Source: an uncultured bacterium (lineage in GTDB: Bacteria; Patescibacteriota; JACMRA01). From it: a DNA stretch of 64,000 bases. Position numbers and translations under genes: made by a program. The notes beneath the pieces are model-generated. The model did not search any database and was not told where the DNA came from. It was given only the letters and a program-made list of their open reading frames with translations. The stretch lies in contig CAWAQU010000003.1 in NCBI GenBank assembly GCA_963784355.1, positions 64,001 through 128,000 of the forward strand, read 5' to 3'. Below, piece by piece: positions 516 through 54,473 of the stretch. The first letter of the stretch is position 1. Each line of letters starts with the position of its first letter.

Positions 516-549
516 AAAATAAAAAATCTCCCTGGATTGGGAGTAGATT
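516..549 (-). terminator. Intrinsic terminator (attenuator) in the thrS leader
   Basis: Minus-strand CUCCC-AAUCCA-GGGAG followed by AUUUUUUAUUUU, about 50 nt before the thrS ATG. Confidence 0.85.
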
Positions 550-580
550 GAAGTTTAAAATAAAATTAGTCAAACTGCAG

Positions 581-631
581 CTACCCCTTTAACGGGTTTG
601 TAGTAGTTGTTGTAGTCTGAAGCGAATTCAT
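581..631 (-). CDS. Thr-rich leader peptide MNSLQTTTTTTNPLKG
   Basis: ATG 631 to TAG 581 with six consecutive ACT/ACA codons, between a promoter and a terminator upstream of thrS. Confidence 0.88.
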   Translation of the reverse strand: MNSLQTTTTTTNPLKG

Positions 632-641
632 ATTCTTTTTA

Positions 642-670
642 ATTATAGTTGTAATCTATATATTAGTCAA
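642..670 (-). promoter_or_regulatory. Sigma70 promoter of the thrS leader
   Basis: TTGACT-17 nt-TATAAT, 10 nt before the leader ATG. Confidence 0.8.
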
Positions 671-977
671 CTTTAGGCGGTTGAACTTTGTCAGCTTTTC
701 TATTTCTAACCTCATCAACTGCAGCCTGAGCTTTTTTTATTTCTTCTAAAGTCCGTGGTGTAAATAATGTAAAATACATAGCTTTGCTATCATCTCGATT
801 ATCTTTTCCGAGCATACCCAATGTATCAAATTCAGGTTTGGGCATAGTACTTAAAATTTCAGGCCAGAGTACAACAAAAATAGCAACTATTATTGCATCA
901 AATGTTTCAGGAACTAGCTCTCCCTGTTCTGAAATTTCTATTTGGTCGTAAAGTATAGGTTTTTGATATTGTTCCAT
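663..977 (-). CDS. Hypothetical protein
   Basis: 104-aa ORF, no family recognised. Confidence 0.6.
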   Translation of the reverse strand: MEQYQKPILYDQIEISEQGELVPETFDAIIVAIFVVLWPEILSTMPKPEFDTLGMLGKDNRDDSKAMYFTLFTPRTLEEIKKAQAAVDEVRNRKADKVQPPKVD

Positions 978-1041
978 ATTACTTTAACAATAGCATATAA
1001 TTCTAAATTTGACTAGAGTTAATTTTTATGCGTTAGATTAA

Positions 1042-1785
1042 ATGTTGCCCATTTTTAATACAATTTTATTATTTTTTATGTCTGAATACACTCCACCTAT
1101 AAATCACAACATTGTAAAAGTGTCAAAGCCCCATAAAAGTTTTGAAAAAAGGGACAAGTTTACAGCTAAAAAAGAATTTAACAGTGTCAATAAAAAATCT
1201 TCTGTACTCATGCCATCACAAAATAAAACGGAAATGGCTAATATGACTAGATTTTTGGAGCCTTTTGGTAGAGTTGAAGTTCGAGCTAATCCTAAAGTTG
1301 CTACAGTAATAGAGGCTGCGATAAATGCAACTCGTGCCGTTTCACAAGTCTTGGGTTGGGATTTAGATGAGCGAATAATGGAAACAATCCAATTAACTGC
1401 TGGCCATGTAAATTCGGATGCTGTTGATCTTTGCGATGCTGCTTTTATTGCAAAATTTGGTAAGTTTGGTAAGTTTGGTAGAAAACCTTGGGGTTATAGT
1501 ATAACAATGACCTTTGATGAAATTACAGAAGAACGAGTGGATCCCAATGGTCCTTATAGAAGTATTATATTTAAATGTTATGCCGATTTACGTAAACTTC
1601 GTAATGACTTTGGTATATCAAAGTTAATCAATCCTGCAGCTACAGCGGAATTTCCTAATGTCTCGTTAAAAGCCAACTCAAATAAACAAGAACCTAAAAA
1701 CACGAATAACTTTAATAATATCCCTTTAATAAACAACTCAAACAGAGTAAAACTTAATAGTCTCAAAGAGAAAAAAGTTAACTAG
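1042..1785 (+). CDS. Hypothetical protein (start may be 1078)
   Basis: 247-aa ORF with an Asn/Lys-rich tail and a short KFG x3 repeat. Confidence 0.65.
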   Translation: MLPIFNTILLFFMSEYTPPINHNIVKVSKPHKSFEKRDKFTAKKEFNSVNKKSSVLMPSQNKTEMANMTRFLEPFGRVEVRANPKVATVIEAAINATRAVSQVLGWDLDERIMETIQLTAGHVNSDAVDLCDAAFIAKFGKFGKFGRKPWGYSITMTFDEITEERVDPNGPYRSIIFKCYADLRKLRNDFGISKLINPAATAEFPNVSLKANSNKQEPKNTNNFNNIPLINNSNRVKLNSLKEKKVN

Positions 1786-1800
1786 AAAATTATATTCCTA

Positions 1801-2277
1801 CTACGCAATTTTTCTAGGTTTATCAGTTCTTCTTTGCTCAGAGTGAACAATATGAGGTCTGAAATGATTATCAGGACTTATTTTTTCATTTAATTGAGAT
1901 AATTTATCAGATACCGGGGATATTTCCGGATGCCTTATCTCTAAGCCCGGTTTTTTTCCGGGTTCTAAATATTTATTTATTTCCATAGTACCACCCTCTT
2001 TTGTTTCCATAATTGCTTTTTTGATCAAAAATATATTACCCTTTGTTTGTTTGATTTTCCCCTCAATGCCTAACAAGTGGTATATCTTATCATGTTTAGT
2101 TAAAAGTAATTTTTCCAGATTTCTATAGTATAGTAGCTGTTTAGCAAATTCTTTAAGCAATGACTGGAGGTATTGTTTTTTATTAACTAGTAGATTTGAA
2201 GTTGATTCCGAATTATTTTTCGTTTGGACTTCACTATCTACATTTGGGGTTCCAAGAAAAGAATGATCACTAAACAT
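1801..2277 (-). CDS. Hypothetical protein
   Basis: ORF 1801..2352; ATG 2277 (MFSDHS) taken as the likely start. Confidence 0.6.
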   Translation of the reverse strand: MFSDHSFLGTPNVDSEVQTKNNSESTSNLLVNKKQYLQSLLKEFAKQLLYYRNLEKLLLTKHDKIYHLLGIEGKIKQTKGNIFLIKKAIMETKEGGTMEINKYLEPGKKPGLEIRHPEISPVSDKLSQLNEKISPDNHFRPHIVHSEQRRTDKPRKIA

Positions 2278-2423
2278 AATATAAGTTGATAGATAAAATT
2301 TCAATAAAAAGCAACTATACATTTCTAAATTAAAAGGTCCAATTTGAAGCAAGCAGCCTTGACAAAAAATCCAAAAATTATAAGTCTATGGCTACTTAAA
2401 AATTAACAACAATTTATATAAAT

Positions 2424-2795
2424 ATGACTTTAAGTCGCAAACTACTAGCAACTATTTTCGGAACAGTATTTACTTTAATCGGATTATTAGGTTTCTTCAA
2501 CGATCCAGTACTTAGCCTTTTTGATGTAGATACTATCCACAATTTTGTTCACTTAATCACAGGTATTGCAGGCTTAGTTTACGGTATGCAAAATAACGAT
2601 ACTGCAAAAAGATACGGCCAGATATTTGGTGCAATTTATGGGCTAGTGACTCTTATGGGATTTGTAATGGGCGAAGGTAAATTACTTGGTTTGATGAGTA
2701 TTAACAATGCAGACAACTACTTGCATTTATTTTTATCTGCAGGTTTGATTTATCTTGGTTATTTTATGACTAGTGATGAAGTAAAAACTGTCTAA
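2424..2795 (+). CDS. DUF4383-like small membrane protein
   Basis: Four hydrophobic segments with HNFVHL and ADNYLHL motifs. Confidence 0.8.
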   Translation: MTLSRKLLATIFGTVFTLIGLLGFFNDPVLSLFDVDTIHNFVHLITGIAGLVYGMQNNDTAKRYGQIFGAIYGLVTLMGFVMGEGKLLGLMSINNADNYLHLFLSAGLIYLGYFMTSDEVKTV

Positions 2796-2816
2796 AATTT
2801 CATTTTATTTAAAATT

Positions 2817-2843
2817 TCCTCTCTTTATGGGAGGTTTTTTGTT
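2817..2843 (+). terminator. Intrinsic terminator
   Basis: CCTCTC-TTTAT-GGGAGG followed by TTTTTT. Confidence 0.7.
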
Positions 2844-2889
2844 GACAAAATAGGGTTTTTAAGTTAGTTTAATTGTGTTGAGAATTACT

Positions 2890-2966
2890 GCAACCGTAGC
2901 TCAGTTGGATAGAGCGAAGGCCTTCTAAGCCTTAGGTCACAGGTTCGATCCCTGTCGGTTGCACCA
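2890..2966 (+). tRNA. tRNA-Arg(UCU)
   Basis: Acceptor GCAACCG/CGGTTGC, anticodon arm AAGGC-CT TCT AA-GCCTT, GGTTCGATCC T-arm, encoded CCA. Confidence 0.97.
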
Positions 2967-2979
2967 CTATATAATAGCA

Positions 2980-3004
2980 TCCCCATAATGGGGAATAATT
3001 TTTT
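2980..3004 (+). terminator. Probable terminator after tRNA-Arg
   Basis: TCCCC-ATAAT-GGGGA hairpin followed by a T-tract. Confidence 0.55.
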
Positions 3005-3010
3005 CTAAAA

Positions 3011-3925
3011 ATGCAAAATGTACATGTACCAGTACTTTTAAACGAAGTATTTGAGTCAGTCTCTCAGCTTAAAAATAAAGGTGGTAAGATTTTCGATGGA
3101 ACTTTGGGTGGTGGTGGTTATACTCAGAAATTTTTAAATGGTGGCTTTGAAGTTTATGCAAGTGATTTGGACGAAAACGCTATAAATTTGGTACGCACAA
3201 AATTAAATAATCCTGAAAAGCTAACTGTAGTAAATTCTAATTTTGCTGACTATATTGAGACTTTTGATAAAGATTTTTTTGACGGAATTGTTTTGGACCT
3301 CGGTTTTTCCAGTAATCAACTGCAGCATTCAGGGCGAGGATTTAGTTATCAAAATCGCGAGGAAATTTTTGACTTGAGGTACAATATTACCACAGGTAAA
3401 TCATGTTTTGAAAAGTTGAGGGAAGTAAAATCTGCAGAAAATTTGTGGACAATTATATATACCTACAGTGGAGAAAAGTTTAGCAAATCAATTTCAATCA
3501 ATATTTTTAACTTCCTTAAAGAAAATTCTGGTTCAGTTTTAGTGGGAGAGATAGTTGATCAGGTAACCAAAGCTGTTCCCGCTAAATTTCAAAAACACCT
3601 AAATAGTACACTAAGTAGAGTGTGGCAAGCTTTAAGGATCTGGACCAATGATGAATTTGGTAGTTTAGAAAAATTTTTACCTCTGGCTGCCGAAAAATTG
3701 AAACCCGGCGGTAGGTTAGCTATTGTTAGCTTTCATAGTCTTGAAGATAAAATTGTAACTAAATTTATGCGAAATCTGGCAAAGCCCTTAGAAATCGACG
3801 TATTTGGCAACAAAACTCAAGCATTTAAGCTGATAACATCTAAAGCAATTGTGGCTAGTGAAAAAGAGGTTGAAGAAAATCCTAGAAGTAGGAGTGCATT
3901 GTTGAGAGTGTTGGAAAAGATCTAA
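3011..3925 (+). CDS. rsmH: 16S rRNA m4C1402 methyltransferase RsmH
   Basis: HVPVLLNE, DGTLGGGG, DLGFSSNQL, SFHSLEDKIV and NPRSRSALLR motifs. Confidence 0.96.
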   Translation: MQNVHVPVLLNEVFESVSQLKNKGGKIFDGTLGGGGYTQKFLNGGFEVYASDLDENAINLVRTKLNNPEKLTVVNSNFADYIETFDKDFFDGIVLDLGFSSNQLQHSGRGFSYQNREEIFDLRYNITTGKSCFEKLREVKSAENLWTIIYTYSGEKFSKSISINIFNFLKENSGSVLVGEIVDQVTKAVPAKFQKHLNSTLSRVWQALRIWTNDEFGSLEKFLPLAAEKLKPGGRLAIVSFHSLEDKIVTKFMRNLAKPLEIDVFGNKTQAFKLITSKAIVASEKEVEENPRSRSALLRVLEKI

Positions 3926-3942
3926 TTTTGCTTAATATATAT

Positions 3943-4323
3943 TTAAATATAAACCGGCCAGTACAGATTTCTATCTTTATTTATTTTTTTTATCAAATAA
4001 ATTCTACCTTTATCCTCTTCTAAAATCAAATTGAGTTCTAGATTTTTACTGGAATCTTCATAAATACAGTAAACTTTAGCTTTGGTAAGAGCTTTTTCAT
4101 AATTTATCACTTTAGCATATTTAAAGTCAGGATTTTCTGCAGTCTCGCAAAGCTCGGATATATTTTTAATTTCTTTTAAGTAAAGATTGGTAGCAGTTTC
4201 AGCCCTAATATAAGCGAAAATAAGCGAACTAAAAAGCAAAATTATTAGCAAACCGACTAAAAAGCCCCAATAATTGAGTGTTTTATTTTGAAAAACTTTA
4301 CCAAGTCCAGACATTTTCCGCAA
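3943..4323 (-). CDS. Hypothetical membrane-anchored protein
   Basis: 126-aa ORF with an N-terminal TM segment, overlapping the end of recJ. Confidence 0.65.
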   Translation of the reverse strand: MRKMSGLGKVFQNKTLNYWGFLVGLLIILLFSSLIFAYIRAETATNLYLKEIKNISELCETAENPDFKYAKVINYEKALTKAKVYCIYEDSSKNLELNLILEEDKGRIYLIKKINKDRNLYWPVYI

Positions 4324-6217
4324 TTAATTCTTTTTTAGTACTACCGTTCCAAGTATTTTGACTTACTTTAGCTTGGACCCAAAGTTTTGGCAAATTATTT
4401 TCCAAGAGAGTCTTTTTTAAGTCCCCAGAAATGTTAAATACTGTTATATTAAGTTGATTATTTGATTTTATTTTAATATGCTTATTTTCACTACCCAGCC
4501 ATTGGAAGTTAAGATTTTCAGGCTCTATATGAAACATAAAAACCGGCATAGGAAAATCCTGCCCAAAAGGATCGAGGCTGAATATTTCGCTTAATAAGAC
4601 TGCATCTATCTCCTTAAATTCAAGCCAAATTAAATTTTTCTGTGTTTTTAGTTTATTCAATCTTTCAGGTAGAAAGTCCAGTAATTTTTCTTTGCCCAAG
4701 AGCCAGGAAGGAAGTTGGTTGATCCTCAAATCCTGATCTGACACTTGCCCAGAGATAACTTTTGATAGAGATTCTCTAATTTCCGGTAGATTAGTCTTTT
4801 GAGCCGTAAAACCTGCTGCAGCCGGATGCCCACCCGCTTTATTAAATAGCTCTTTAATCTCCTCCATAGCTTTTGGAATATGAAAACCTTCAGGTGCTCT
4901 TAGTGAAGCACAAATCTCATTTTCAGCTTCTTCATAGCAAATTGTGGACACAACTACAACCGGTAGATTATAGATATTTACCAATCTGGAGGCTAACAAG
5001 CCAATTATGCCCTTGCTCCACTCTCCTTCCAACCACAAAACTTTATTACCAGCAACAAATTGGTCCTCTGCTTCTTTCTCTACTTCACTTAAAATGTTTT
5101 TAACCATCAATTTTCGTTCTTTATTTGTGTTTATTAATTTTGTGATTAATGTTCGATTTTCCTGCTCATCATCTGTGCTGATTAGACTTTGAATTGAAAG
5201 GTTGGCATGACTAAGACGGCCGGAAGAATTTAGAATTGGAGAAAGTATAAATCCTAAATCTTGGCTGGTAATTTGATATCCAAACTGCATTTTTTCCAGT
5301 AAACCGGTTTGATTTAAAATTTCAGTAACTCCTCTAAGATTGTGGTTATTTTCCTGGAGTATTTTTAACCCAGATCTGACCAGTAGTCGATTTGTAGGCT
5401 CCAATATACTTTGACAGTCAGCGACGGTACCAATAGCTACTAAAGGTATTAATTTATTGAGATTTTTAAGGGAATTACCTGGTGATAACTCTATTTCTTG
5501 CAAAAAATAACCTAGCCAAACTAAGCAAAACCAAGCTACCCCTACCCCAGTAACAGATTCCGAGAGAATGTTCGTCGGTTGAATCAGTTGATTTTTAATG
5601 GCTATTTCATGTTTATTTAGGTAATTCTGTATTTTATCATCGGTTAAGTTTGTGTGATTTACAAAACTGTATTTTTCAGGATTTTCTAAATAATAGTTGC
5701 CGAGTCTGGGATTTATTACAGCTGTGCAATCCGGCGCTTCTCCATGCAAATGATGGTGATCAGTGATAATCAAATCTGCTGTTTTTTGACTGTTTTCAGC
5801 TTTCAATTTTTTAATAATTTCTGCTTCTTTTACAGAATTGATTCCACAGTCTACCGAGATAATTAAATCATACTTTTTAGCTAATTTCTCTACAGCTTCA
5901 CCATTCATTCCATAGCCTTCGGTAAATCTGTCCGGAGCATAGAAATCTAGGTCCTCTTGGTTAAAACCTAGACTGATCAAACCCCAATACATAGTTGCTG
6001 TAGCAGTAACTGCATCAGTGTCATAATCGCTGTAAATACAGATTTTGTGGTTATATTTTTTAGCTTCAAGTAAGCGTAGACAGAATTTTTCTATGTTAAA
6101 TAAATATGGCAGAATTTGAACGTGCCCATTTAGATCCAATTGAGTGAAGAACTTAGGGTATTTAAAACCATCTCCACTATAAAAACGCTGAAAATAATCA
6201 ATCAATTGAGTCTTCAT
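4298..6217 (-). CDS. recJ: ssDNA exonuclease RecJ (DHH family)
   Basis: DYDTDA, PDRFTEGYG, VDCG, TDHH, GTVAD and GGHPAAAG motifs. Confidence 0.93.
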   Translation of the reverse strand: MKTQLIDYFQRFYSGDGFKYPKFFTQLDLNGHVQILPYLFNIEKFCLRLLEAKKYNHKICIYSDYDTDAVTATATMYWGLISLGFNQEDLDFYAPDRFTEGYGMNGEAVEKLAKKYDLIISVDCGINSVKEAEIIKKLKAENSQKTADLIITDHHHLHGEAPDCTAVINPRLGNYYLENPEKYSFVNHTNLTDDKIQNYLNKHEIAIKNQLIQPTNILSESVTGVGVAWFCLVWLGYFLQEIELSPGNSLKNLNKLIPLVAIGTVADCQSILEPTNRLLVRSGLKILQENNHNLRGVTEILNQTGLLEKMQFGYQITSQDLGFILSPILNSSGRLSHANLSIQSLISTDDEQENRTLITKLINTNKERKLMVKNILSEVEKEAEDQFVAGNKVLWLEGEWSKGIIGLLASRLVNIYNLPVVVVSTICYEEAENEICASLRAPEGFHIPKAMEEIKELFNKAGGHPAAAGFTAQKTNLPEIRESLSKVISGQVSDQDLRINQLPSWLLGKEKLLDFLPERLNKLKTQKNLIWLEFKEIDAVLLSEIFSLDPFGQDFPMPVFMFHIEPENLNFQWLGSENKHIKIKSNNQLNITVFNISGDLKKTLLENNLPKLWVQAKVSQNTWNGSTKKELIAENVWTW

Positions 6218-7583
6218 ATTCTGTTTTTTCTGCTAAATTAGCTAATAGCCCGATCATAATGAAAATGGGCATGATGAAAATAGGTGAAAAAGTTATCCAT
6301 TGAATATATGAGGCTATCAAAGCAAAAATTAGAGTGAGTCTTGCAAGGTTACTGCCTGAATTCCAGGATTTTAAATGATTTAGTAATTTAATATTTTTCA
6401 GTACAGGCCATAGTAGAATCATCATAAATACCAGGAAAGCCAAAAAACCGAATTCCAACCAAACTTCCAAATACACATTATTTACTATAAGATAACTATT
6501 TGGATCTGATAGAATGCCGCCCAGTGCTTCATTTTGCATCCAGGCTCCATACTGACCACTTCCTAGCCCCGTTATGATAAAATTTGGCAATAATACTAAT
6601 GCACCTTCTAAAAAGGCTAATCTTTCAAGAGAAGAGGCAAATTGAAAAGTGAATGTGGCAATAAAATTGTTGATAATTCCAAAAGCAATTAACCTAAAAT
6701 TTTCAAAAAATAAAATACCTAAGAAAAGCAAGCTGGATACTACTAGTAGAATGTTTTTAGCCCACTTTAAAAAAAGTGACACTTGTAATTTCCGTGCACC
6801 ATACGCAATCAAAACTATTACACTTAAAACTAAAGCTAGATAAGCTCCTTTGGATAAGGTAAGTAGAAATATTAAAATAAATAGGCCAAGTAATTCAAAG
6901 TTTATTATTTTACCTTTGAATTTGGTTTTAAGAACAGATTTAGCTACAAAAATATGCACCAGTACAAATATAATTGGCAGTAACATCATGCCGGCAAAAT
7001 ACAGAGGTTCTAAAGCTGTTGCTTGCACGCGTGGAATACCAAATACTATTTTTGTGTACTGTTGTCTAAGCCCTGTAAAAAGTGGAGGAATTCCTATTAA
7101 ATCACCAAAGAATTGATACAATCCGAAAAGTGAAACCCCAATAAATACGTAGACAAGTTTTCTGAGTTTAGAATAAATATTTTCACTGAAATTAGAAAGT
7201 AAAAATACAGCTCCAAAACATAAAAGTGTAGCAATTTGGGTTACCAGAAATCTTTTACTATCAATTACAAAAAACCATGAGGGGATGGATAAAATGATGA
7301 ATCCTAACAATAGATAGCTTATAGGATTTAGCCTTACCTGAAGTAATTTTTCATCTTTTTTTGCAAGTAACACTACTACTACCCAAATTCCTATGATAAT
7401 TAGTATTTGTCCGATTCTAAGATTAGCCCCTGCGATTTGCAAACTTGGTATTCTTTCGAAAGGTAGTGATAGAACTAACCCTGTAGTTATTTTATCCAGC
7501 CATTCAAATTTAGCGAAGTGCCAAAGCAGCCAAGAAATTATAGCTAAAATGGTTAAGCCAATTATTGCAAAAAGTAGAAGCAT
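6198..7583 (-). CDS. O-antigen ligase/polymerase (Wzy_C-like) membrane protein
   Basis: Multi-TM; RVQATALEPLYFA, TLSKGA, GLGSGQY and NNVYLEVWLEFG motifs. Confidence 0.85.
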   Translation of the reverse strand: MLLLFAIIGLTILAIISWLLWHFAKFEWLDKITTGLVLSLPFERIPSLQIAGANLRIGQILIIIGIWVVVVLLAKKDEKLLQVRLNPISYLLLGFIILSIPSWFFVIDSKRFLVTQIATLLCFGAVFLLSNFSENIYSKLRKLVYVFIGVSLFGLYQFFGDLIGIPPLFTGLRQQYTKIVFGIPRVQATALEPLYFAGMMLLPIIFVLVHIFVAKSVLKTKFKGKIINFELLGLFILIFLLTLSKGAYLALVLSVIVLIAYGARKLQVSLFLKWAKNILLVVSSLLFLGILFFENFRLIAFGIINNFIATFTFQFASSLERLAFLEGALVLLPNFIITGLGSGQYGAWMQNEALGGILSDPNSYLIVNNVYLEVWLEFGFLAFLVFMMILLWPVLKNIKLLNHLKSWNSGSNLARLTLIFALIASYIQWITFSPIFIMPIFIMIGLLANLAEKTEYEDSID

Positions 7584-7660
7584 TCAGTAGGAAAATTACC
7601 AACTAGAGAGTTTTAGTCAAATTGACAGAAAACGCAAATACCCAAATATTGAATTAACTT

Positions 7661-8641
7661 ATGTCAAATGTTAAAACCGTACTAATCGTAGGCGGAGCAG
7701 GATATATTGGGTCTCATACAAACTTTGCTTTTTTAGATGCGGGTTATAATACAATTATTTTTGATAACTTGGTCTATGGGCACAAAGAAGTAGTACCTGA
7801 AACAAGTAAGTTTATTCAAGGTGATTTACTTAACAAGCAAGATTTAGAGAGAGTTTTTACTGAAAACAAAATTGATGCAGTAATTCACTTTGCAGCCTAT
7901 GCTTATGTAGGAGAGAGCGTCACAAATCCCCAAAAATACTATTTTAACAACGTAGTCGGCACTCTAAATTTACTTGAAGCCATGCTAAATCACAACGTAA
8001 AAAATATTGTATTTTCATCAACTTGTGCAACTTATGGTCTACCAGAAAACATTCCTATTACTGAAAGCACGTCCCAAAATCCTATCAATCCATATGGTCA
8101 AACTAAACTGATGGTAGAAAAAATACTTAGTGATTACGCGAGTGCATATGATTTAAGATTTGTAGCACTTAGATATTTTAATGCTTGTGGGGCAGACGTG
8201 AAAAGTAGAAGTGGAGAAGACCATGAACCCGAAACCCACTTGATTCCATTGGTTTTAAAAGCAGCAAAGTCTGGAACTTCAATTAAAGTTTTTGGCAATG
8301 ACTACAGTACCCCAGATGGTACATGTATTCGAGATTATATTCATGTAAATGATTTAGCAGATGGTCATTTATTGGCTTTGGAGAAAATTCTAGACGAGAA
8401 GATTAAAGCAGAATTTATCAACTTAGGTACCGGGAATGGTTATTCAGTAAAGGAAATCATTGAAACAGCTCGAGAGGTAACAGGTAAAGAAATTAAAGTT
8501 GAGGAGATTGAGAGAAGGGCCGGAGATCCTGATAAATTGATTGCAGATAACACAAAAGCTAAGACAGTTTTAGGCTGGGAACCTGAGTATTCAGATTTGA
8601 AGACTGTGCTTGAGACTAGTTGGAAGTGGTTAGGGAAGTAA
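7661..8641 (+). CDS. galE: UDP-glucose 4-epimerase
   Basis: GGAGYIGSH, FSSTCATYG, YGQTK and DGTCIRDYIHV motifs. Confidence 0.96.
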   Translation: MSNVKTVLIVGGAGYIGSHTNFAFLDAGYNTIIFDNLVYGHKEVVPETSKFIQGDLLNKQDLERVFTENKIDAVIHFAAYAYVGESVTNPQKYYFNNVVGTLNLLEAMLNHNVKNIVFSSTCATYGLPENIPITESTSQNPINPYGQTKLMVEKILSDYASAYDLRFVALRYFNACGADVKSRSGEDHEPETHLIPLVLKAAKSGTSIKVFGNDYSTPDGTCIRDYIHVNDLADGHLLALEKILDEKIKAEFINLGTGNGYSVKEIIETAREVTGKEIKVEEIERRAGDPDKLIADNTKAKTVLGWEPEYSDLKTVLETSWKWLGK

Positions 8642-31956: not shown

Positions 31957-33276
31957 CTAACTTATTAACTTAACAATCATATTCTCCCCTGTTTCTCTAA
32001 TTTTTATCTCAATCCCACCATTTTCCAGACTCTTTTTAGAAATAATAATTTGGACTGCACATCCTATTAAATCTGCATCTTTCAATTTCTCGCCCATACT
32101 AATCCCCTGTCTGTCATCCCACAAAATTTCTTCAGCTGAGACCTTAGTATTTTCAACCAAATTGAAGGTTTTATCATCGTTTTCAACTAAACTAAATTTG
32201 CCTAAATACAGATTTTGTGCTATACTTAGGATTTGATTATTTACATTTTCATCATCTTTTTCATTGATATTGGTAACAATGTGAAATTCAAAAGGCGCTA
32301 CTGTTTTAGGCCATTTTAACCCTTTTTCGTCATTATATAATTCAGCAACTATGCCCATGCAGCGTGTAATACCAATACCATGAGCGCCCATTAATGGGTA
32401 TTTATCTTCATTATTTTCATCTTTATAAGTTAGTTCAAAAGCTTTTGTGTATTTATCACCATATTTAAAGATATTTCCAACTTCAGCTGATACCGCCTTA
32501 GTTAAATTGCTAGGTAAATCACCTTTTTGCTTTAAATCTTCATAAACTTCCATATTACAAGCAAAATTGCCCTCCTCGGAATACAGTATCTCATCTTCAC
32601 CTGCCTCACATATAACTTGGAATTCATGGCTCATATTTTCAGTAAAAATTCCGCCACTTGCTTCTACTACATAAGCTTTCATGCCCATTTCAGTATAGCT
32701 AGCCAGATAAGCCTGTTTAATCATTTCATAATATTTATCAAAAGATTCTTGGGTTCTATGAAAATCATACATATCTTTCATTTTAAACTCTCTGCCACGC
32801 AGTATTCCGGATTTAGCTCTTAATTCATCTCTAAACTTAGTTTGTATTTGATATACAGATAAAGGTAATACATGATTTTCTGGATCTGTAATAGGTAAGT
32901 CTTTCCATGATTTTATGAAATTTTTCGCAATAGGTACAACCTGCTCCTCATGACTGCAAGCAAGAGCGTATTCTGTTTTAGTTTGGCTTTCCAACTTGAA
33001 AAGAATATCAACACTATCCCATCTGCCTGTTGTTTCCCAAAAAGCTTTTGGATGTAAACTGTTCATCAGTATCTCCTGGCCGCCAATAGCATTCATATGC
33101 TTACGGACAATATTCTCAATTTTATTTAGCACCCTAAGCCCCAATGGTAGATATGAATATACCCCGGCCATGGTTTTATGCACAAATCCTGCTTTAATAA
33201 GAAGCTGAGCATTTTTACTGGTTTCATCTGCAGGTACATCTCTGCTTGTTTTAGTGAAAAGATTAGAAAGACGCAT
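31957..33276 (-). CDS. proS: Proline--tRNA ligase (short type, no full editing domain)
   Basis: MRLSNLF, GVYSYLPLG, YQIQTKFRDELR, REFKMKD, SHEF and GIGITR motifs. Confidence 0.96.
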   Translation of the reverse strand: MRLSNLFTKTSRDVPADETSKNAQLLIKAGFVHKTMAGVYSYLPLGLRVLNKIENIVRKHMNAIGGQEILMNSLHPKAFWETTGRWDSVDILFKLESQTKTEYALACSHEEQVVPIAKNFIKSWKDLPITDPENHVLPLSVYQIQTKFRDELRAKSGILRGREFKMKDMYDFHRTQESFDKYYEMIKQAYLASYTEMGMKAYVVEASGGIFTENMSHEFQVICEAGEDEILYSEEGNFACNMEVYEDLKQKGDLPSNLTKAVSAEVGNIFKYGDKYTKAFELTYKDENNEDKYPLMGAHGIGITRCMGIVAELYNDEKGLKWPKTVAPFEFHIVTNINEKDDENVNNQILSIAQNLYLGKFSLVENDDKTFNLVENTKVSAEEILWDDRQGISMGEKLKDADLIGCAVQIIISKKSLENGGIEIKIRETGENMIVKLIS

Positions 33277-33404: not shown

Positions 33405-33432
33405 AAAAACAAAAAATTCCCTATAAGGGATT
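33405..33432 (-). terminator. Intrinsic terminator (attenuator) in the proS leader
   Basis: UCCC-UUAUA-GGGA followed by AUUUUUUGUUUUU. Confidence 0.7.
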
Positions 33433-33473
33433 GGAGTAAGCTTGAGCCAAAATAAAATAAATCCAGCCCAAGC

Positions 33474-33518
33474 CTATCTAGGCGGGAAATTAACTGAATT
33501 TAAGTTTGAATATTTCAT
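33474..33518 (-). CDS. Pro-Pro leader peptide MKYSNLNSVNFPPR
   Basis: ATG 33518 to TAG 33474; CCG CCT lie one codon before the stop; between a promoter and a terminator upstream of proS. Confidence 0.7.
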   Translation of the reverse strand: MKYSNLNSVNFPPR

Positions 33519-33527: not shown

Positions 33528-33557
33528 ATTATACCATAAATTGAAATCTGTTGTCAA
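33528..33557 (-). promoter_or_regulatory. Sigma70 promoter of the proS leader
   Basis: TTGACA-18 nt-TATAAT with TGn extension, 9 nt before the leader ATG. Confidence 0.8.
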
Positions 33558-46765: not shown

Positions 46766-46882
46766 TATCGGCTTTGGCCTACTTTCCCCGGAATCTGCAT
46801 TCCAGTATCATCAGCGTAGCTGCGTTTCAAGACTCTGTTCGGAATGGGAAGAGTTGGTTCCACAGCACTTGGAAAACCGACA
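46766..46882 (-). rRNA. rrf: 5S rRNA, stand-alone
   Basis: Minus strand UGUCGGUUUU...CCCAUUCCGAAC...GCUGAUGAUACU...GGGAAAGUAGG...AAAGCCGAUA; terminal helix pairs; about 117 nt. Confidence 0.93.
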
Positions 46883-48304: not shown

Positions 48305-48404
48305 AATTATTTGAGAGGTATGATTTAAGCAATTTACAGCTTTCTAACTATTTAAAAAGCTCTAAGCTGCCGACACATTTGTGTCAAGCTGGCTTTCATA
48401 TGAT

Positions 48405-49067
48405 TTATAGACCTGAAATGTCTACTGTAAGAGTACCACTATATGATTGAGCAGTAACAATTTCTTTAGTTGGAGCAGGATATTCTCCTTTAGCAGGAAT
48501 TGTAAGACTAGTTTCAATAGTACCTCCATAACTACCTCCACCTACGCTCTGATTTGAAGGGGCATCAAGTAAATTAAAATTATTACTATAGCCAACATTC
48601 GTTAAAGCTGAAAGAGAAGAGATTGTTTGAGAGGAGTTGTACGTTGTAAGGCTTGATACAAGATCAGGACCTCCTGTTACAGCTACATTTTTAACCTTAC
48701 CGGCTAAATATTTAGAAGCTGTTCCAAAATTAGCACTAACATCAGAAGCCAATAAAATTTTCTTACTGGCTAAGGTCTGTCCAGCCAAATTGGTATATTT
48801 GAACGTAGAAGTCCAACCACCTAAAGTACCACGATAATCACTAATTGTAAAAGGAATATCTGTTACACTGGTCTGGGCTGTATTGTTTAAAGTGATTCCA
48901 CTCAAAGTATAACTCGGATTTGGAATACTTATCTCAATCTGACCTGGAGCAACCGCTAAAGATACTTGAGTATTGTCTGTTGTAGCAGCTGAAACTGGGA
49001 GAGCGGTAGCAACACCTGCAGCTGCAAGTAGCATAAAACTTGCTTGTAATTGTTTTGACGTAATCAT
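48405..49067 (-). CDS. WxL-like secreted surface protein
   Basis: Signal peptide; ISDYRGTLGGWTS, LTIP and YSGTLT motifs. Confidence 0.72.
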   Translation of the reverse strand: MITSKQLQASFMLLAAAGVATALPVSAATTDNTQVSLAVAPGQIEISIPNPSYTLSGITLNNTAQTSVTDIPFTISDYRGTLGGWTSTFKYTNLAGQTLASKKILLASDVSANFGTASKYLAGKVKNVAVTGGPDLVSSLTTYNSSQTISSLSALTNVGYSNNFNLLDAPSNQSVGGGSYGGTIETSLTIPAKGEYPAPTKEIVTAQSYSGTLTVDISGL

Positions 49068-49170
49068 AGATATTTGTTTTTTGTGTTTGTTTTGTTTTTA
49101 CAAACTGATAAGTGGTACTTAAAAAGTTGCAACTTCTTTTGTGTACTTAACATCAATTATATACCTATTT

Positions 49171-50331
49171 TTAGACCTGGTCAAATTTTTGTAATTTAAG
49201 CACCAAATGCCCCACAAAAGAGTCTTTTCTGCTGTATGTTAAATACTTATCAGTATCAAAATTTATATAGTTATAGCTTGTATTTGCCACCAAATCATCT
49301 AAAAAGTTCGGTAAATGTGACTTGCCGTGTATTCGATAAAATGGTAAACAAAAAACAATTTCAGAAATATCAAGATTATCAGCATGTTTTATTAACTTCT
49401 GCCAAATTCCTTTTAAATTATCCCATTCTTGTTCAATCTGCTCTACTGTTGGAGTCCGCTTAAAGTTGAAACCCAAGTAACCTTCTGTCACAATAGCTAA
49501 TCCATTTATTTTCTCTTTACTTAAGTACTTAGTTGCCTGATCTAAATCACGAGCATCTAGTGTAAATATTGCAGCAAGCTTTTCCGAACCCAAGTCCACT
49601 TTTCTAAATCTACTCCAATAATTCAAAGCAAAGTCAAAATTATCCTTGATTTCTTGTTTTAGCACTTCCCCATCTAAATCCGAAGCATACTGCCGATTTT
49701 TTAGATCAATCCCAGCAACTAATAATCTCCCTGAACCACAGAAAGGGTCCCAAATGATTTGCTTTTTAGTATAATTCTGCAATGTTCTAGCCAATTTTAA
49801 ATTGATAAGCCCCCTACTCATATCTCCTGCTGGCAAGCCAGTGTCCAAGTTTTGCCAAAATTGCTGATCAAAAAAATTTCTTATTCTTCCTAAAATAATT
49901 TTATCTTCGTATATGAAAGTAATTAACCAATTTTTTGTTTGTTTCCAATGACCGTATGCCAAATTGTTAGTGTAATCTTGTATATTTATTTTTTTGGATC
50001 CCACTTCTTTAGAAACTATATAAGCTTTTTTGTGCAGCTCAACAGGCAAAACCAAGCCAAGTTTCTTTATTGGCTCGTCTTGACTCAATAGATAGTCTCT
50101 AAGTGTTTGTAAAATTTCAGACTCCAATTCACTAGTCTTACCTGTATTTTCCCAAGATTTTATAATTTCACCTTGATAAACTAAAGAACCTGTGGTGTTT
50201 ACGTCCAGAAATGTATTTCCTAGAAGGTATGCTTTGTCGGTAATAAAACCAGTTTCCTGAGTTAGTTTAGTAAATTCGGAGATTCCAAATTGAGGTTGAT
50301 GTCCTAATCTGTAAAAGTATTTAAAGTCCAT
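49171..50331 (-). CDS. TRM11-like SAM-dependent RNA methyltransferase
   Basis: GLINLKLAR, WDPFCGSG and IVTEGYLG motifs. Confidence 0.8.
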   Translation of the reverse strand: MDFKYFYRLGHQPQFGISEFTKLTQETGFITDKAYLLGNTFLDVNTTGSLVYQGEIIKSWENTGKTSELESEILQTLRDYLLSQDEPIKKLGLVLPVELHKKAYIVSKEVGSKKINIQDYTNNLAYGHWKQTKNWLITFIYEDKIILGRIRNFFDQQFWQNLDTGLPAGDMSRGLINLKLARTLQNYTKKQIIWDPFCGSGRLLVAGIDLKNRQYASDLDGEVLKQEIKDNFDFALNYWSRFRKVDLGSEKLAAIFTLDARDLDQATKYLSKEKINGLAIVTEGYLGFNFKRTPTVEQIEQEWDNLKGIWQKLIKHADNLDISEIVFCLPFYRIHGKSHLPNFLDDLVANTSYNYINFDTDKYLTYSRKDSFVGHLVLKLQKFDQV

Positions 50332-50333
50332 AA

Positions 50334-51632
50334 TTAATTGCCTGAAGAATCGATATTTTTTATTGTTGTTTTAGTTGAAACGAGTTTTCTAAATTCTAAT
50401 AACGCCGTATAGGTACTCAATACTATAAATTCACTTTTTGCCTCCATTATTTTATTCAAAAGTTGATCAAGGTTTTCAATATAATTTTCTGAATTCACAA
50501 CACTATTTGCATATTCAAATCTCAAAAGTATGTCCAGACCCCTAGTTCCACCGGTATAAATTTGATTTATAGGTTGAGTGGTTACAAAATCTTCCAAATC
50601 AATATCCCAAAGCCAAGAAACATCTTTGCCATCTGCTATTTTGTCATTGATCAGAACAGCTAAGTTAATTGCTTGTTTTTGGTTATTATCGGAAATATAG
50701 TTTAAAACTTGATTGAATCCGGCCGGATTTTTAACTAACATTAATTTAATCCTACTTTCCCCTACTTGAATTTCTTCACCCCTGCCAAAAACAGGTTCAA
50801 AGTTCATAATAGGATCTAGGGCTCTTGTACCAAACTCTTCATAAGCAGGTAAAAAAGCTGCCAGAGCATTATAAATATTATATGTCCCGGGTAATTTGAG
50901 GTTGATTTTGTGGATTTTGTTATCTCCCGTTGCTACTTGAAAATTATTTCCATGAATGTTGTAAGCAATAAATTTTTCGCTGAAATTAATTTCTATATCT
51001 TCCGTACTTTCGAATTGTGGTTTTTTAGCTAAAGGTAGATTTAAACCAAAGCCATAAATTTTACCTTTGAAGTCATTTACACACTTAAGCAGTTTTTTGT
51101 CATCAGAATTCAAGTACAGTTTAAAATCAGGTTTTTTGGAACTTAATTTGATTGATTCCTCAAAATAATGCAGAGTTTTATCAATTTCACCATAAGCATC
51201 CAATTGGTCTCTAAAAATATTAGTTAATATCAATTTATCCGGTAAAATATATTTGCACAGCTTTGGTAAAGAAGCTTCTTCAACTTCTAAAATGGCTATT
51301 TTATTGATGTTTCTGCCTTGACCATCCAAATTCAATAGTAAGCTGCTAGCCACTCCTCTTAAAATATTAGCACCACCCCTATTTGTACAAACTTGTACTC
51401 CGTTTTGTTCATAAATATCAACCAGGATTGCTCTAGTTGTAGTTTTACCGTTGGTTCCGCTAATGAAAATAATCTGCTCAAAATCTTTGCCTATATAACC
51501 TAAAATGTCTATGAAGTATTTCTCTATCACGAGCCCGGGCAAACTTGTACCACTACCTTTTTTTAAAGCTCTACTTAAATAAGCCAGGGTTTTAGCAAAA
51601 TATGAAAGTAGTATGGTTTTTAATCTCAGCAT
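50334..51632 (-). CDS. murT: MurT-type ligase (DUF1727)
   Basis: GTSLPG, SGTNGKTTT, NIFRDQLDAYGE, LVKNPAG and DGKDVSWLWD motifs. Confidence 0.9.
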   Translation of the reverse strand: MLRLKTILLSYFAKTLAYLSRALKKGSGTSLPGLVIEKYFIDILGYIGKDFEQIIFISGTNGKTTTRAILVDIYEQNGVQVCTNRGGANILRGVASSLLLNLDGQGRNINKIAILEVEEASLPKLCKYILPDKLILTNIFRDQLDAYGEIDKTLHYFEESIKLSSKKPDFKLYLNSDDKKLLKCVNDFKGKIYGFGLNLPLAKKPQFESTEDIEINFSEKFIAYNIHGNNFQVATGDNKIHKINLKLPGTYNIYNALAAFLPAYEEFGTRALDPIMNFEPVFGRGEEIQVGESRIKLMLVKNPAGFNQVLNYISDNNQKQAINLAVLINDKIADGKDVSWLWDIDLEDFVTTQPINQIYTGGTRGLDILLRFEYANSVVNSENYIENLDQLLNKIMEAKSEFIVLSTYTALLEFRKLVSTKTTIKNIDSSGN

Positions 51633-51635
51633 ATT

Positions 51636-52277
51636 TTAATTTTGTGGAACAATTTGCTTGGGGCTAGGTATTTTTTCTACGATTGTTTCAAGTAATTTAT
51701 CAACTCCCAATCCTGTCTTAGCGCTTACATGCAATATTTCATCTCTTGGATAACCTAAAATTCTTTCAATTTCCTCACTTCTAGTTGCAATATCCGCATT
51801 TGGTAAGTCAATTTTATTTAAAACGGGGATAATAGCCAAATCCTGTTCCATTGCTGAGTATAAATTTGCTAGAGTTTGAGCTTGAATACCTTGGGTAGCG
51901 TCTACTACAAGCACCGCGCCTTCACAAGCGGCCAAACTACGGGAAACTTCATAAGAAAAATCCACATGTCCGGGTGTATCTATTAAGTTTAAAACGAAGT
52001 TTTTGCTTTTCCAAGACTCGTATTTTTGGATATCTTCAGTACTCAGATCAATCATTTCATCATTTTCAGCAGTAAACTGATAATTATAATTCATTCTAAC
52101 AGGCTGTAACTTTATTGTGATGCCTCTTTCTCTTTCCAAATCCATTTTATCTAGGGCCTGCTCTTTCATATCACGCATAGTAACAGTGCCAGTAAGCTCC
52201 ATTAATCTGTCGGCTAAAGTACTCTTCCCGTGATCAATATGGGCAATAATACAAAAATTTCTAATAAACTCAAGCAT
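51636..52277 (-). CDS. lepA: Elongation factor 4 (LepA), G-domain only; split or truncated
   Basis: [49 protein letters not shown] and SAK motifs; stops at 213 aa just after IPSP. Confidence 0.9.
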
Positions 52278-52330
52278 GTTTGATAAATGGCTTGTAATTT
52301 AGCCCTTGTCAACTTGTCCAACTAAAGAAA

Positions 52331-53263
52331 TTAGCTACTCATTTTTATAACCTCTTTAATTGCCAAAAAGCCCGCATCATGATCTCCCAATTTAGGGTTT
52401 TTGTCAGGCATAATAATATAGCAATCTATTGGGGCAACATGCTTCTGGATATCATCTGTTGCAAAAATCTGACCTGACTTTACTTTGGTACCGGTTTTTA
52501 CGTCATCTACAATAAATTTAAAATTAATTCCCGGCTTTATAGGGGCGATAAATTTGTAAACTTCAATTACATCTTGGTTATCTGTTTCCACAACTTCTAT
52601 AATAGGCAATTTTTCCTGATCCATTAAATTAAAGTGGTTGATCGCCATAACAACATGCTCCAAAGCTACATTTACAGTTGAACTAGCAGTATTATTACCA
52701 CACTCTATTGCCAGGCTTGGTATATTTAGCTGATTTGCCACACTTACTATTAATCCTGGAGTATGAGTTTCTTCAGTAGAGAAATGCAGTTTTATATTGG
52801 TAATTTTAGTGCTTAAATCTTTACTTTTTTCATCGGAAGCATAAATTACAGCCTGAAAATTACCCACGCTTACGGAGTGCATATCCAGTAAAAAACTAAT
52901 ATCCTTGTTTTCTTTTAAGAATTTCATCACCTCTATAGCCCTTCTTTCTTCAACTGAATTGGGCAAAATATTATCAGTAAATACTCTATTCATATTGATA
53001 TCAATAAATCTTAGATTCTGGGCATATGCTTCAGGATTACCTATAATAAAAGTAATTTTACCATGTTTAAGTGCATGGTTATTTTTAGTAAAATATTTGT
53101 GAAAATCAATCATAGCCTCTACACTAGCTGGTTCACTACCGTGTAAAGCACCCACAAAAACTAGATGTGGCCCCGGCAGTCCTGAATCAATTTGAAAACT
53201 ATGAGACAAGCTTGTGTTGGCATGCTGTTGGAAATATTTAATATTACTTTCTGTGTTTGACAT
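52331..53263 (-). CDS. Succinylglutamate desuccinylase/aspartoacylase family (M14-like) hydrolase
   Basis: HGSE, GNPEA, RF...MNR, LDMHS and ECG motifs; ATG 53263 chosen as start. Confidence 0.9.
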   Translation of the reverse strand: MSNTESNIKYFQQHANTSLSHSFQIDSGLPGPHLVFVGALHGSEPASVEAMIDFHKYFTKNNHALKHGKITFIIGNPEAYAQNLRFIDINMNRVFTDNILPNSVEERRAIEVMKFLKENKDISFLLDMHSVSVGNFQAVIYASDEKSKDLSTKITNIKLHFSTEETHTPGLIVSVANQLNIPSLAIECGNNTASSTVNVALEHVVMAINHFNLMDQEKLPIIEVVETDNQDVIEVYKFIAPIKPGINFKFIVDDVKTGTKVKSGQIFATDDIQKHVAPIDCYIIMPDKNPKLGDHDAGFLAIKEVIKMSS

Positions 53264-53273
53264 AGGCTTATAT

Positions 53274-53301
53274 AACAAAAAATCCCCTTTAGGTGGGGAA
53301 T
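53274..53301 (-). terminator. Intrinsic terminator (attenuator) just upstream of the desuccinylase-family gene
   Basis: UCCCC-ACCUAAA-GGGGA followed by UUUUUUGUU. Confidence 0.8.
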
Positions 53302-53334
53302 TAAATTTAATTTTAATAATGATAATAAACTAAA

Positions 53335-53391
53335 CTATTTCCCCTTGTGTGGAGTGACCATAATAATACAAAGGAGACCAGAGTTTAACAT
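53335..53391 (-). CDS. Putative leader peptide MLNSGLLCIIMVTPHKGK
   Basis: ATG 53391 to TAG 53335; promoter TTGACA-17-TATAAT at 53405-53433; its 3' GGGGAA complements the terminator 5' arm. Confidence 0.7.
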   Translation of the reverse strand: MLNSGLLCIIMVTPHKGK

Positions 53392-53429
53392 ACTATATAC
53401 TTTAATTATATTGAAAAATGCAAATTGTG

Positions 53430-54185
53430 TCAAGAAACCCAACTCAACCAAGTTTGGATAATTTTTATTTGGTCTTCATCTTTTAGGTCCAATTCAGGGT
53501 GCCATTGCATCCCCAAAATTTTTTTGTTTTTTATAGAGACTGCTTCAATTAAACCATCCGGAGCCACTGCTTCTACTTGTAAACCCTCGCCCAATTTGTC
53601 TACTCCTTGATGATGTATACTTGTCACCATGATTGTATTTTTATTTAAAACATCATATAGGATTCCATCTTTTTTTAAATCTACTGGGTGCACTTTTCCG
53701 GTTTCTACACTTTCATTATCAAAATCTCCATCTTCCTGCTTTTCTGCAGTATATTTAATGTGCTGCACTGGAGCATTTTCATCAAGGTGCTGAATTAAAG
53801 TACCGTTTTGGACTACGTTCAACATCTGGAAGCCACGACAAACAGCTAGTACAGGCAAATTCCTTTCCATTGCAGCTCTAATTAAATAGTAGTCATACCA
53901 ATCTTGAAAATTTTCGCTAGTTTTATTTTCCGGTCCAGTAGTGTACATACCTGGATCAATGTCTTTACCTCCAAGTACTATTAATCCGTCAGCCTCGCTG
54001 ATATATCTGGAAATTTCATCTTTTATGGTTTCCATATCATTAATTTTTGTGTGGAAAAAAGGTACTTGTGGTAAAAAACTCTGTTCAAGTAAAAAATCGG
54101 ACCATTTACTATGAATATAAATTATGGGCAAACCTTCTTTATAGGTCATAAACCTTGGTGAAATTAGTATTTTTTTCATTTTCAT
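53430..54185 (-). CDS. Peptidase C26 / gamma-glutamyl-gamma-aminobutyrate hydrolase family (PuuD-like)
   Basis: GGKDIDP, AVCRGFQMLNV, SIHHQ and QWHPE motifs. Confidence 0.92.
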   Translation of the reverse strand: MKMKKILISPRFMTYKEGLPIIYIHSKWSDFLLEQSFLPQVPFFHTKINDMETIKDEISRYISEADGLIVLGGKDIDPGMYTTGPENKTSENFQDWYDYYLIRAAMERNLPVLAVCRGFQMLNVVQNGTLIQHLDENAPVQHIKYTAEKQEDGDFDNESVETGKVHPVDLKKDGILYDVLNKNTIMVTSIHHQGVDKLGEGLQVEAVAPDGLIEAVSIKNKKILGMQWHPELDLKDEDQIKIIQTWLSWVS

Positions 54186-54196
54186 AAAATTTAATA

Positions 54197-54221
54197 TTAA
54201 AAAATCTCCCTAAATGGGAGT
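54197..54221 (-). terminator. Intrinsic terminator (attenuator) just upstream of the C26 hydrolase gene
   Basis: CUCCC-AUUUA-GGGAG followed by AUUUUUU. Confidence 0.8.
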
Positions 54222-54253
54222 GATAAAAAATTGGTATAGATAATTTTGCTCCC

Positions 54254-54310
54254 TTAATTTGGATTGTCTATGTCACAAGTACAAGCTAAAAGTAACGCAA
54301 AATTTAACAT
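54254..54310 (-). CDS. Putative leader peptide MLNFALLLACTCDIDNPN
   Basis: ATG 54310 to TAA 54254; promoter TTGACA-17-CATAAT at 54317-54345; GGGAG directly after the stop complements the terminator 5' arm. Confidence 0.7.
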   Translation of the reverse strand: MLNFALLLACTCDIDNPN

Positions 54311-54473
54311 GCTTTAATTATGGCAAATAATCTATTTCGTGTCAAAATGGTATTCATTTTCTTGTGAAAAAGTTAGGAATTAGATTGAACTCACTTTATA
54401 ATTGCATAAAGTAGTCCCATCCTTTGATTTAAAGCACAATTTCTAATTTAGGTCAATAGATGCGTAGGAACAA

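Follow-up and report, generated by a model that had tools for sequence, protein, structure and literature searches.

The window analyzed here is a 64,000-nucleotide (nt) stretch of DNA, positions 64001-128000 of contig C3 of an uncultured bacterium whose genome (hereafter the host genome, labeled G000) comprises 1.14 Mb in 13 contigs, has 33% G+C, and is 81% complete. On its minus strand, the window carries four leader units of one shared architecture, located before the aminoacyl-tRNA synthetase (aaRS) genes thrS and proS and before two hydrolase genes, one of the succinylglutamate desuccinylase/aspartoacylase family (AstE-like) and one for a class-I glutamine amidotransferase/C26 gamma-glutamyl hydrolase-like protein (C26). 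In each unit, a promoter is followed by a close ATG, an upstream open reading frame (uORF) of 14 to 18 codons, and a terminator with a T-tract, a layout that the first-pass annotation had described and that we could read in the sequence, in agreement with a terminator and promoter scanner. The features are as follows:

670..642, minus strand: thrS leader promoter, TTGACT-17-TATAAT, 11/12 consensus matches
631..581, minus strand: thrS leader uORF, stop included, MNSLQTTTTTTNPLKG, 16 codons, with Thr codons at 616..599 and GGGG at 587..584, then TAG
543..528 (543..521 with T-tract), minus strand: thrS leader terminator stem, CTCCC-AATCCA-GGGAG
2..466, minus strand: 5' part of thrS, NCBIfam TIGR00418, E 7e-168; the full gene, 978 amino acids (aa), extends past the window
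33557..33528, minus strand: proS leader promoter, TTGACA-18-TATAAT, 12/12 consensus matches
33518..33474, minus strand: proS leader uORF, stop included, MKYSNLNSVNFPPR, 14 codons, with Pro codons at 33485..33480
33430..33418 (33430..33411 with T-tract), minus strand: proS leader terminator stem, TCCCT-TAT-AGGGA
31957..33276, minus strand: proS, 439 aa, NCBIfam TIGR00409 proS_fam_II, 385.7 bits, above cut-off
53433..53405, minus strand: AstE/AspA-family leader promoter, TTGACA-17-TATAAT, 12/12 consensus matches
53391..53335, minus strand: AstE/AspA-family leader uORF, stop included, MLNSGLLCIIMVTPHKGK, 18 codons, with the G-run at 53344..53341
53299..53283 (53299..53277 with T-tract), minus strand: AstE/AspA-family leader terminator stem, TCCCC-ACCTAAA-GGGGA
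52331..53263, minus strand: succinylglutamate desuccinylase/aspartoacylase-family gene, NCBIfam aspartoacylase E 1e-14 and AstE E 2e-12, below cut-offs, assigned at family level only
54345..54317, minus strand: C26 leader promoter, TTGACA-17-CATAAT, 11/12 consensus matches
54310..54254, minus strand: C26 leader uORF, stop included, MLNFALLLACTCDIDNPN, 18 codons, with GGGAG adjoining at 54253..54249
54220..54206 (54220..54199 with T-tract), minus strand: C26 leader terminator stem, CTCCC-ATTTA-GGGAG
53430..54185, minus strand: class-I glutamine amidotransferase/C26 gamma-glutamyl hydrolase-like gene, 251 aa, NCBIfam gamma-glutamyl-GABA hydrolase E 3e-26, below cut-off, assigned at family level

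Gene identities were obtained by NCBIfam profile search, in which thrS and proS scored above cut-off and both hydrolases below it. The gap between the -10 box and the ATG measures 10 nt for thrS, 9 nt for proS, 13 nt for the AstE-like unit, and 6 nt for C26, and because the ATG of the latter follows so closely, the C26 leader transcript is probably leaderless. All four terminators were found by the scanner, each with a 5-bp G+C-rich stem and a T-tract of at least five T. A G-run is situated right before the uORF stop (thrS, AstE-like), right after it (C26), or 7 nt after it (proS). Its complementarity to the terminator 5' arm, proposed for all four units in the first-pass annotation, was found for thrS, AstE-like, and C26, but in proS it is limited to 3 to 5 bp, and modeling predicts no competition there. 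Likewise, the uORFs do lack a Shine-Dalgarno (SD) motif, as had been remarked, but this is a genome-wide trait rather than a special property of the uORFs: GGAG or GAGG at -20 to -4 was found for 17 of 742 long ORFs in the host genome, versus 26 of 742 in a control window, and many ordinary host genes begin a few bases after a -10 box. These numbers suggest that translation initiation in the host is mostly leaderless or SD-independent, and the uORFs thus start like ordinary host genes.

Several scans of the host genome addressed how often such an arrangement arises by chance. The motif TTGAC[AT]-N16-19-[TC]ATAAT has only 26 matches on both strands of the 1.14 Mb, 5 of which are leader promoters, i.e., those of the four units and of a further leader before lysS. 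A composite scan for a relaxed promoter, a short uORF, a hairpin followed by a T-run, and an ORF, in that order, returned eight matches versus none in the reversed sequence; five rows were leaders (thrS, proS, AstE-like, and serS in two registers), while three look like chance, and the C26 and lysS leaders were missed because of strict -10 and T-run rules. One Lys-rich composite match on contig C6 was rejected, as it lies inside a gene. A G-run/terminator pattern gave seven matches in the host genome versus one control match. Only short distances separate the terminator from the start codon of the gene (13 nt for C26, ~15 nt for AstE-like, 20 nt for serS, and 54 nt for thrS), and for the thrS and the two hydrolase leaders the scanner finds no same-strand promoter in between. 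With no promoter or room after the terminator, thrS, C26, the AstE-like gene, and serS would therefore have to be reached by read-through.

On the basis of the sequence and of folding models, we consider these leader units to be, probably, ribosome-mediated (leader-peptide) transcription attenuators. A strong sigma-70-type promoter would start a transcript that is leaderless or has a leader of up to ~7 nt, and a ribosome would translate the 14 to 18 codon uORF while RNA polymerase advances. A ribosome that reaches the stop would cover the G-run (region 2), upon which the CUCCC/GGGAG hairpin with its U-tract would form and the transcript would end before the gene. An earlier stall, at a shortage of charged tRNA, would instead cover region 1 and leave the G-run free to pair with the terminator 5' arm, such that the polymerase would enter the gene. 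The thrS leader would sense Thr-tRNA, its Thr codons (ACU ACA ...) being part of region 1, and the lysS leader, outside the window, would probably sense Lys-tRNA. For proS and the two hydrolases, the mechanism is suggested by the architecture only, and we name no sensed amino acid. We infer from the above that the uORFs are translated, that transcription starts at the promoters described, that it terminates at the hairpins, and that the outcome responds to amino acid supply.

The evidence is strongest for thrS. The leader peptide MNSLQTTTTTTNPLKG, directly before thrS, contains six consecutive Thr codons among 16, and as runs of at least six ACN triplets number 10 in 2 × 1.14 Mb, ~7e-4 would be expected per given 150-nt window. 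When folded with no ribosome present, the leader adopts the 1:2 helix, in which the Thr codons and CCC pair with GGGGTAG, plus the terminator. The antiterminator strand CTACTCCC, positioned just before and within the terminator 5' arm, pairs with the same GGGGTAG, and the resulting 2:3 duplex has an energy of -9.9 kcal/mol, versus -8.3 kcal/mol for the terminator hairpin. We modeled the ribosome as a 28-nt mask placed on each codon in turn, for both the full-length transcript and one without the 3' arm. With the masked ribosome, the terminator probability was 0.78 to 0.84 at early codons and 0.16 to 0.20 with the A-site on Thr 4 to 6, then 1.00 for all later codons up to the stop. In the model that lacks the 3' arm, the G-run sequestered the 5' arm at 0.96 to 1.00 until the ribosome was past the Thr run, after which the arm was free, at 0.00 to 0.05. 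In both models, the thrS leader hence displays an antiterminator that shares the terminator 5' arm and is set by ribosome position. Alternative-structure folding, which the first-pass annotation had put forward as a check, thus yielded the 1:2, 2:3, and 3:4 pairings and a modeled termination that depends on where the ribosome stands. For thrS, and by extension for lysS, we judge the attenuator reading very likely to be right.

Leaders of the same kind are present in relatives. The closest relatives of the host's ProRS are encoded in records titled Patescibacteria group, Woesebacteria, Collierbacteria, and similar, bearing out the Patescibacteria/candidate phyla radiation (CPR)-like setting that had been proposed, and the host's class is small, with 27 species genomes including the host, in one order and two families. 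Of the 26 genomes that make up the rest of the class, five have a homologous Thr-run leader before thrS. Among the relatives' thrS upstream regions of 400 nt, 4 of 38 contain a Thr-run uORF with the same terminator type, with the leader peptides MQIFVTTTTTAQIRE (G022), MASVLSTTTTFMHS (G025), MPNNHVTTTTAIPIQTGVALVV (G016), and, with a GTG start, VKNFVITTTTTTTCKSRG (G014). A scan of the class for the Thr-run/terminator pattern gave matches in 8 of 27 genomes versus one control match; seven of these are leaders and the eighth, in G041, was rejected as the end of a coding ORF. In G018 (L080, C1:386189-389255), the Thr leader is separated from thrS by a 144-aa ORF; ORF ends similar to this one also appear before thrS in G002 and G023. 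A sixth genome, G008 (L078, C60, minus strand), carries its Thr-run leader, VFQAIATTTTITRTWE with a GTG start, before the gene of a 147-aa DUF2000 protein, with thrS 4.4 kb away, and this leader may link DUF2000 to threonine or tRNA-Thr. In metagenomes, 3 of 80 thrS loci have a Thr leader, adding two variants. Among ~374 genomes outside the class, the Thr-run/terminator pattern showed no excess (27 genomes with matches versus 36 with control matches).

We aligned nine Thr leaders, seven from the class and the two metagenome variants. They share three conserved blocks, namely the Thr run, GGGAGUAGUUU.GUUUU, and ACUCCC...GGGAG. Apart from the residues encoded by the Thr run and by region 2, the peptide differs from one relative to the next. 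In six of the seven leaders of the class, the start codon precedes the pattern match by 18 nt, and in the seventh by 21 nt; modeling reproduced the ribosome-position logic in six of the seven, the exception being G016. RNAalifold recovered only the terminator from the nine leaders. Since the MAFFT alignment placed three rows out of register at the terminator, the comparison relied on alignment-free duplex energies: region 2:3 duplexes ranged from -9.5 to -12.9 kcal/mol in eight of the nine, computed in a fixed window that misses the G-run of G025 as well as those of serS and lysS. The Thr leader is a well-defined sequence family with nine distinct members and could serve to build a covariance model for annotating the class.

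Scanning the genome and its relatives for promoter, uORF, and terminator, as had been suggested, extended the set to lysS, serS, Cys, and Thr leaders, but did not find the proS, C26, and AstE-like leaders to recur. The lysS leader elsewhere in the host genome encodes MKLVVFSKKNSKKTSQ, with five Lys codons among 16. The lysS gene itself (L004, G000:C6:35800-38300, minus strand, ~1974-2155) appears to be broken by a frameshift close to the 5' end. An ORF of 45 aa, plausible as the start of LysRS, precedes a 611-aa body in another frame, the body having ~150 extra C-terminal residues; the shift may be genuine or an error of assembly. In two relatives, Cys-rich uORFs with terminators stand directly before cysteine genes, one with three Cys codons, MQKLPLETCFFCCLLSTRG, before cysS in G005 (L141, C54) and one with nine Cys codons before cysK in G016 (L165, C1); because of these Cys-type leaders, we regard cognate-codon leaders as a habit of the lineage. 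The expectation that cognate codons track the downstream gene holds for thrS (6 of 16), for lysS, and for Cys with cysS and cysK, but is weak for proS and finds no clear enrichment in the hydrolase uORFs. Upstream regions of the other host aaRS genes, read by eye, contain no such leader (class I Val/Ile/Leu/Met-type, one Trp/Tyr-type, gltX-type, cysS, alaS, pheS, and a further class IIa gene), and the arginyl aaRS family was not found in the host genome.

Other uORF-terminator units in the host genome have less regular promoters. On contig C12 (L007, C12:104000-114500, minus strand), a Phe-rich leader, MFFATFIFSLILPDNTGA, lacks a canonical -10 box and precedes genes for an unknown protein of 145 aa and for an ABC exporter; a second unit in L007, also on the minus strand, has two Trp codons and a less clear promoter and precedes the genes of a 635-aa unknown protein and an M20 peptidase. 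Another unit, again with a less clear promoter, lies before the gene of an unknown 422-aa protein. Across the class, the G-run/terminator pattern exceeds its control in 22 of 27 genomes. A block consisting of the G-run, TAG, and TTT.GTTT is common to the thrS, serS, and AstE-like leaders and the relatives' Thr leaders, and as it is shared after the G-run, it hints at copying. It is a tentative idea, which we would not yet call likely, that one ancestral thrS leader was copied and re-coded before other genes in the class and that leaderless uORF attenuators are its main amino-acid-sensing regulon. If true, the regulon would comprise thrS, lysS, serS, proS, cysS, and cysK together with hydrolases of peptides or acyl-amino acids, which would release amino acids acquired from a host or from the environment, and the hydrolase leaders would reveal which amino acid each enzyme supplies.

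The cases of proS and the hydrolases are less clear. The proS leader has a long hairpin at ~33476..33434 between the uORF stop and the terminator. None of its modeled states frees an antiterminator; sequestration of the 5' arm peaks at 0.46, when the second Pro codon is in the A-site. In the AstE-like leader, the 5' arm pairs with GGGGAA at the uORF end (duplex -9.6 kcal/mol), and the leader fits a ribosome-controlled antiterminator topology in both models. In the truncated-transcript model, the 5' arm of both the AstE-like and the C26 leader is sequestered until the ribosome arrives at the last few codons; for C26, it is this model only that favors antitermination.

Several results weigh against the attenuator reading. 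Only 2 of the 14 codons of the proS uORF are Pro codons, the proS terminator keeps a modeled probability of at least 0.76 throughout, no minimum-free-energy state sequesters its 5' arm, and the spacer to the gene is 134 nt long, with only weak promoter-like matches (9/12). For C26, the full-length equilibrium model predicts the terminator at 0.83 or more for every ribosome position. The hydrolase uORFs contain one or two Cys and three or four Leu codons, with no clear codon enrichment, and the serS leader elsewhere in the host genome, MFQVHFITSIIL, has a single Ser codon among 12. Conservation of uORFs in orthologous leaders, which the first-pass annotation had made a touchstone, was observed for thrS but not for the others: a proS leader was found in 0 of 22 relatives and a serS leader in 0 of 24, with a detector of C-rich/G-rich hairpins followed by five T that would miss other terminator types, a lysS leader in 0 of 24, and, in upstream regions read by eye only, a C26 leader in 0 of 4 and an AstE-like leader in 0 of 11. 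A metagenome search with the C26 protein gave 595 pattern matches and no relative. Even thrS lacks the leader in G001, of the same genus, and the relatives are kin, so that counts of genomes overstate independence. The folding probabilities come from an equilibrium model with an assumed ribosome footprint, not from kinetics. Lastly, a run search with the host sequence matched no RNA run and one soil-metagenome DNA run, at a 0.07 share of words.

Because none of the proS, serS, lysS, C26, and AstE-like leaders recurs in relatives, they are either recent or subject to fast turnover. Judged from sequence and folding models, the hydrolase leaders are plausible attenuators, with the evidence about evenly poised, whereas from its sequence the proS leader appears doubtful in this role. 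The original proposal of near-leaderless uORF attenuators for both aaRS and hydrolase genes therefore stands strongly for thrS and extends to lysS and serS, but for proS and the two hydrolases it is the architecture that speaks for it.

The lack of cognate enrichment in the proS, hydrolase, and serS uORFs could also mean that these leaders (serS only perhaps) respond not to one amino acid but to the overall speed of translation, which any starvation, antibiotics that target the ribosome, or a shortage of ribosomes could lower. Read-through would then follow from a stall anywhere in the first two thirds of the uORF, and the models do allow antitermination with a ribosome at almost any early codon (M1-V12 in the AstE-like, M1-D15 in the C26, and F6-I10 in the serS leader). 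Moreover, the C12 leader before the small protein and ABC exporter is similar, and it is comparable to antibiotic-responsive leaders of the bmrB-bmrCD type. Where the family offers clear cases, however, they track the amino acid of their gene (Thr with thrS, Lys with lysS, Cys with cysS and cysK), and we regard sensing of general speed as unlikely.

It is considerably less probable still that the units are free-standing genes for small peptides or small RNAs, with their own promoter and terminator and no tie to the downstream gene. Each unit is indeed complete in itself (promoter, ORF, terminator), the 134-nt proS spacer could hold a separate promoter, and the proS, serS, lysS, and hydrolase leaders are not kept in relatives. 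Such genes would, however, not be expected to sit, as the thrS, C26, AstE-like, and serS units do, with the terminator 13 to 54 nt from the start codon and no promoter found in between, nor to have codon runs that match the downstream gene and a G-run that complements the terminator arm; in addition, five other genomes retain the link to thrS while the peptide residues outside the Thr run and region-2 codons vary. Antitermination by a tRNA or protein that binds the leader RNA (T-box-like or TRAP-like) in place of the ribosome, which might be thought of as many Gram-positive aaRS genes use T-boxes (PMC1262725, in the portion of its text available), is highly improbable given that the host genome has no Rfam T-box at E up to 0.001, that the window at Rfam gathering scores shows only tRNA and 5S ribosomal RNA (rRNA), that the leaders, at ~100 nt, are too short for a T-box, and that the Thr codons share the frame of a start codon whose distance is constant (-18 nt in six of seven, -21 nt in the seventh).

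The leaders, read as ribosome-mediated attenuators, can be compared with known systems. At gathering scores, the Rfam scan of the window returned two tRNAs and one 5S rRNA, with no match to a Thr, His, Leu, or Trp leader family. Classical attenuators in enterobacteria control the thr, his, trp, leu, and pheA operons and pheST, the latter with the pheM leader. The host leaders, most clearly that of thrS, share with these a regulatory codon run, regions that pair as 1:2, 2:3, and 3:4, a terminator formed by 3:4, and a ribosome at the stop that would block region 2. Unlike them, the host uORFs have no SD and start 6 to 13 nt after the -10 box, the stems have only 5 to 7 bp, and the targets are aaRS and hydrolase genes in an organism whose 81%-complete genome yielded neither thrC nor proC. 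T-boxes (RF00230) similarly control aaRS genes through a terminator/antiterminator choice set by tRNA charging, but they read uncharged tRNA directly, through a ~200-nt leader and no ribosome. A T-box guess made by eye for the thrS upstream regions of three genomes from other classes was dropped, since Rfam at gathering scores detected only a tRNA among the 15 loci scanned of the 18 fetched.

Judging by its title, a 2010 study by Lopatovskaya, Seliverstov, and Lyubetsky, cited in PMC4833913, is reportedly a comparative survey of classical attenuation of amino-acid and aminoacyl-tRNA operons in several phyla; that year predates most Patescibacteria genomes. Our full-text literature search found no report that combines Patescibacteria with leader peptide and attenuation, nor one that combines candidate phyla radiation with transcription attenuation. 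In other phyla, the accessible part of PMC1262725 lists classical attenuators before aaRS genes, namely pheST in enterobacteria and predicted ones for trpS and leuS in Streptomyces. RNA sequencing of Streptomyces lividans TK24 revealed leaderless leader peptides in thrL-thrS, alaL-alaS, trpL2-trpS, and leuL2-leuS (PMC8079986, in its available portion). As described there, the Streptomyces leaders likewise have a short uORF with no 5' untranslated region (UTR) directly before an aaRS gene, including thrS, with cognate codons and then hairpins (PMC8079986, same portion). According to PMC8079986, the thrL leader has two Thr codons and no clear U-tract terminator, in contrast to the four to seven Thr in a row and the canonical hairpin with U-tract found here. 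The likeness described here is one of architecture, and Streptomyces belongs to the Actinobacteria as opposed to the Patescibacteria. Since leaderless leaders are in print for Streptomyces, the host leaders belong to a known kind. The novelty suggested in the first-pass annotation was thus overstated as regards the kind of element (PMC8079986, as above), although our search found no report from Patescibacteria: this is a known kind of attenuator, new in a phylum that lacks a description of it as far as our literature search reaches.

Some neighboring features deserve mention. The ThrRS (L001:131-3067, minus strand; window 2-466 and beyond) has GNAT acetyltransferase-like matches (RimI and others) spread over residues ~129-490, after the N-terminal domain and ahead of the catalytic core, and this insert varies, as the thrS frames of relatives span 588 to 1141 aa. 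A 5S rRNA gene (window 46766-46881) stands alone and is followed by a CUCCC/GGGAG-type terminator; in relatives, this pair of 5S rRNA and terminator makes up several of the G-run/terminator pattern matches. In several genomes of the class, an element recurs that has the layout ...CCCCGTC..(short hairpin)..GCCACCCC-loop-GGGGAATTT; in G008 it occurs twice in tandem. Examples are as follows:

G002:C100:3067-3116: recurring CCCCGTC element
G011:C65:6070-6123: recurring CCCCGTC element
G008:C2:1639-1711: recurring CCCCGTC element
G013:C7:43823-43893: recurring CCCCGTC element
G006:C13:663-724: recurring CCCCGTC element

The genomes of Patescibacteria are small and encode few known regulators and little amino acid synthesis, and almost none of these bacteria can be grown alone. 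The predicted thrS attenuator, together with its Lys- and Cys-type relatives, would mean that these bacteria use the ribosome as a sensor of tRNA charging, and regulation in uncultured cells would therefore be readable from sequence. If the hydrolase leaders are amino-acid-specific, they would moreover give a pointer to the physiological role of scavenging enzymes that are otherwise unassignable.

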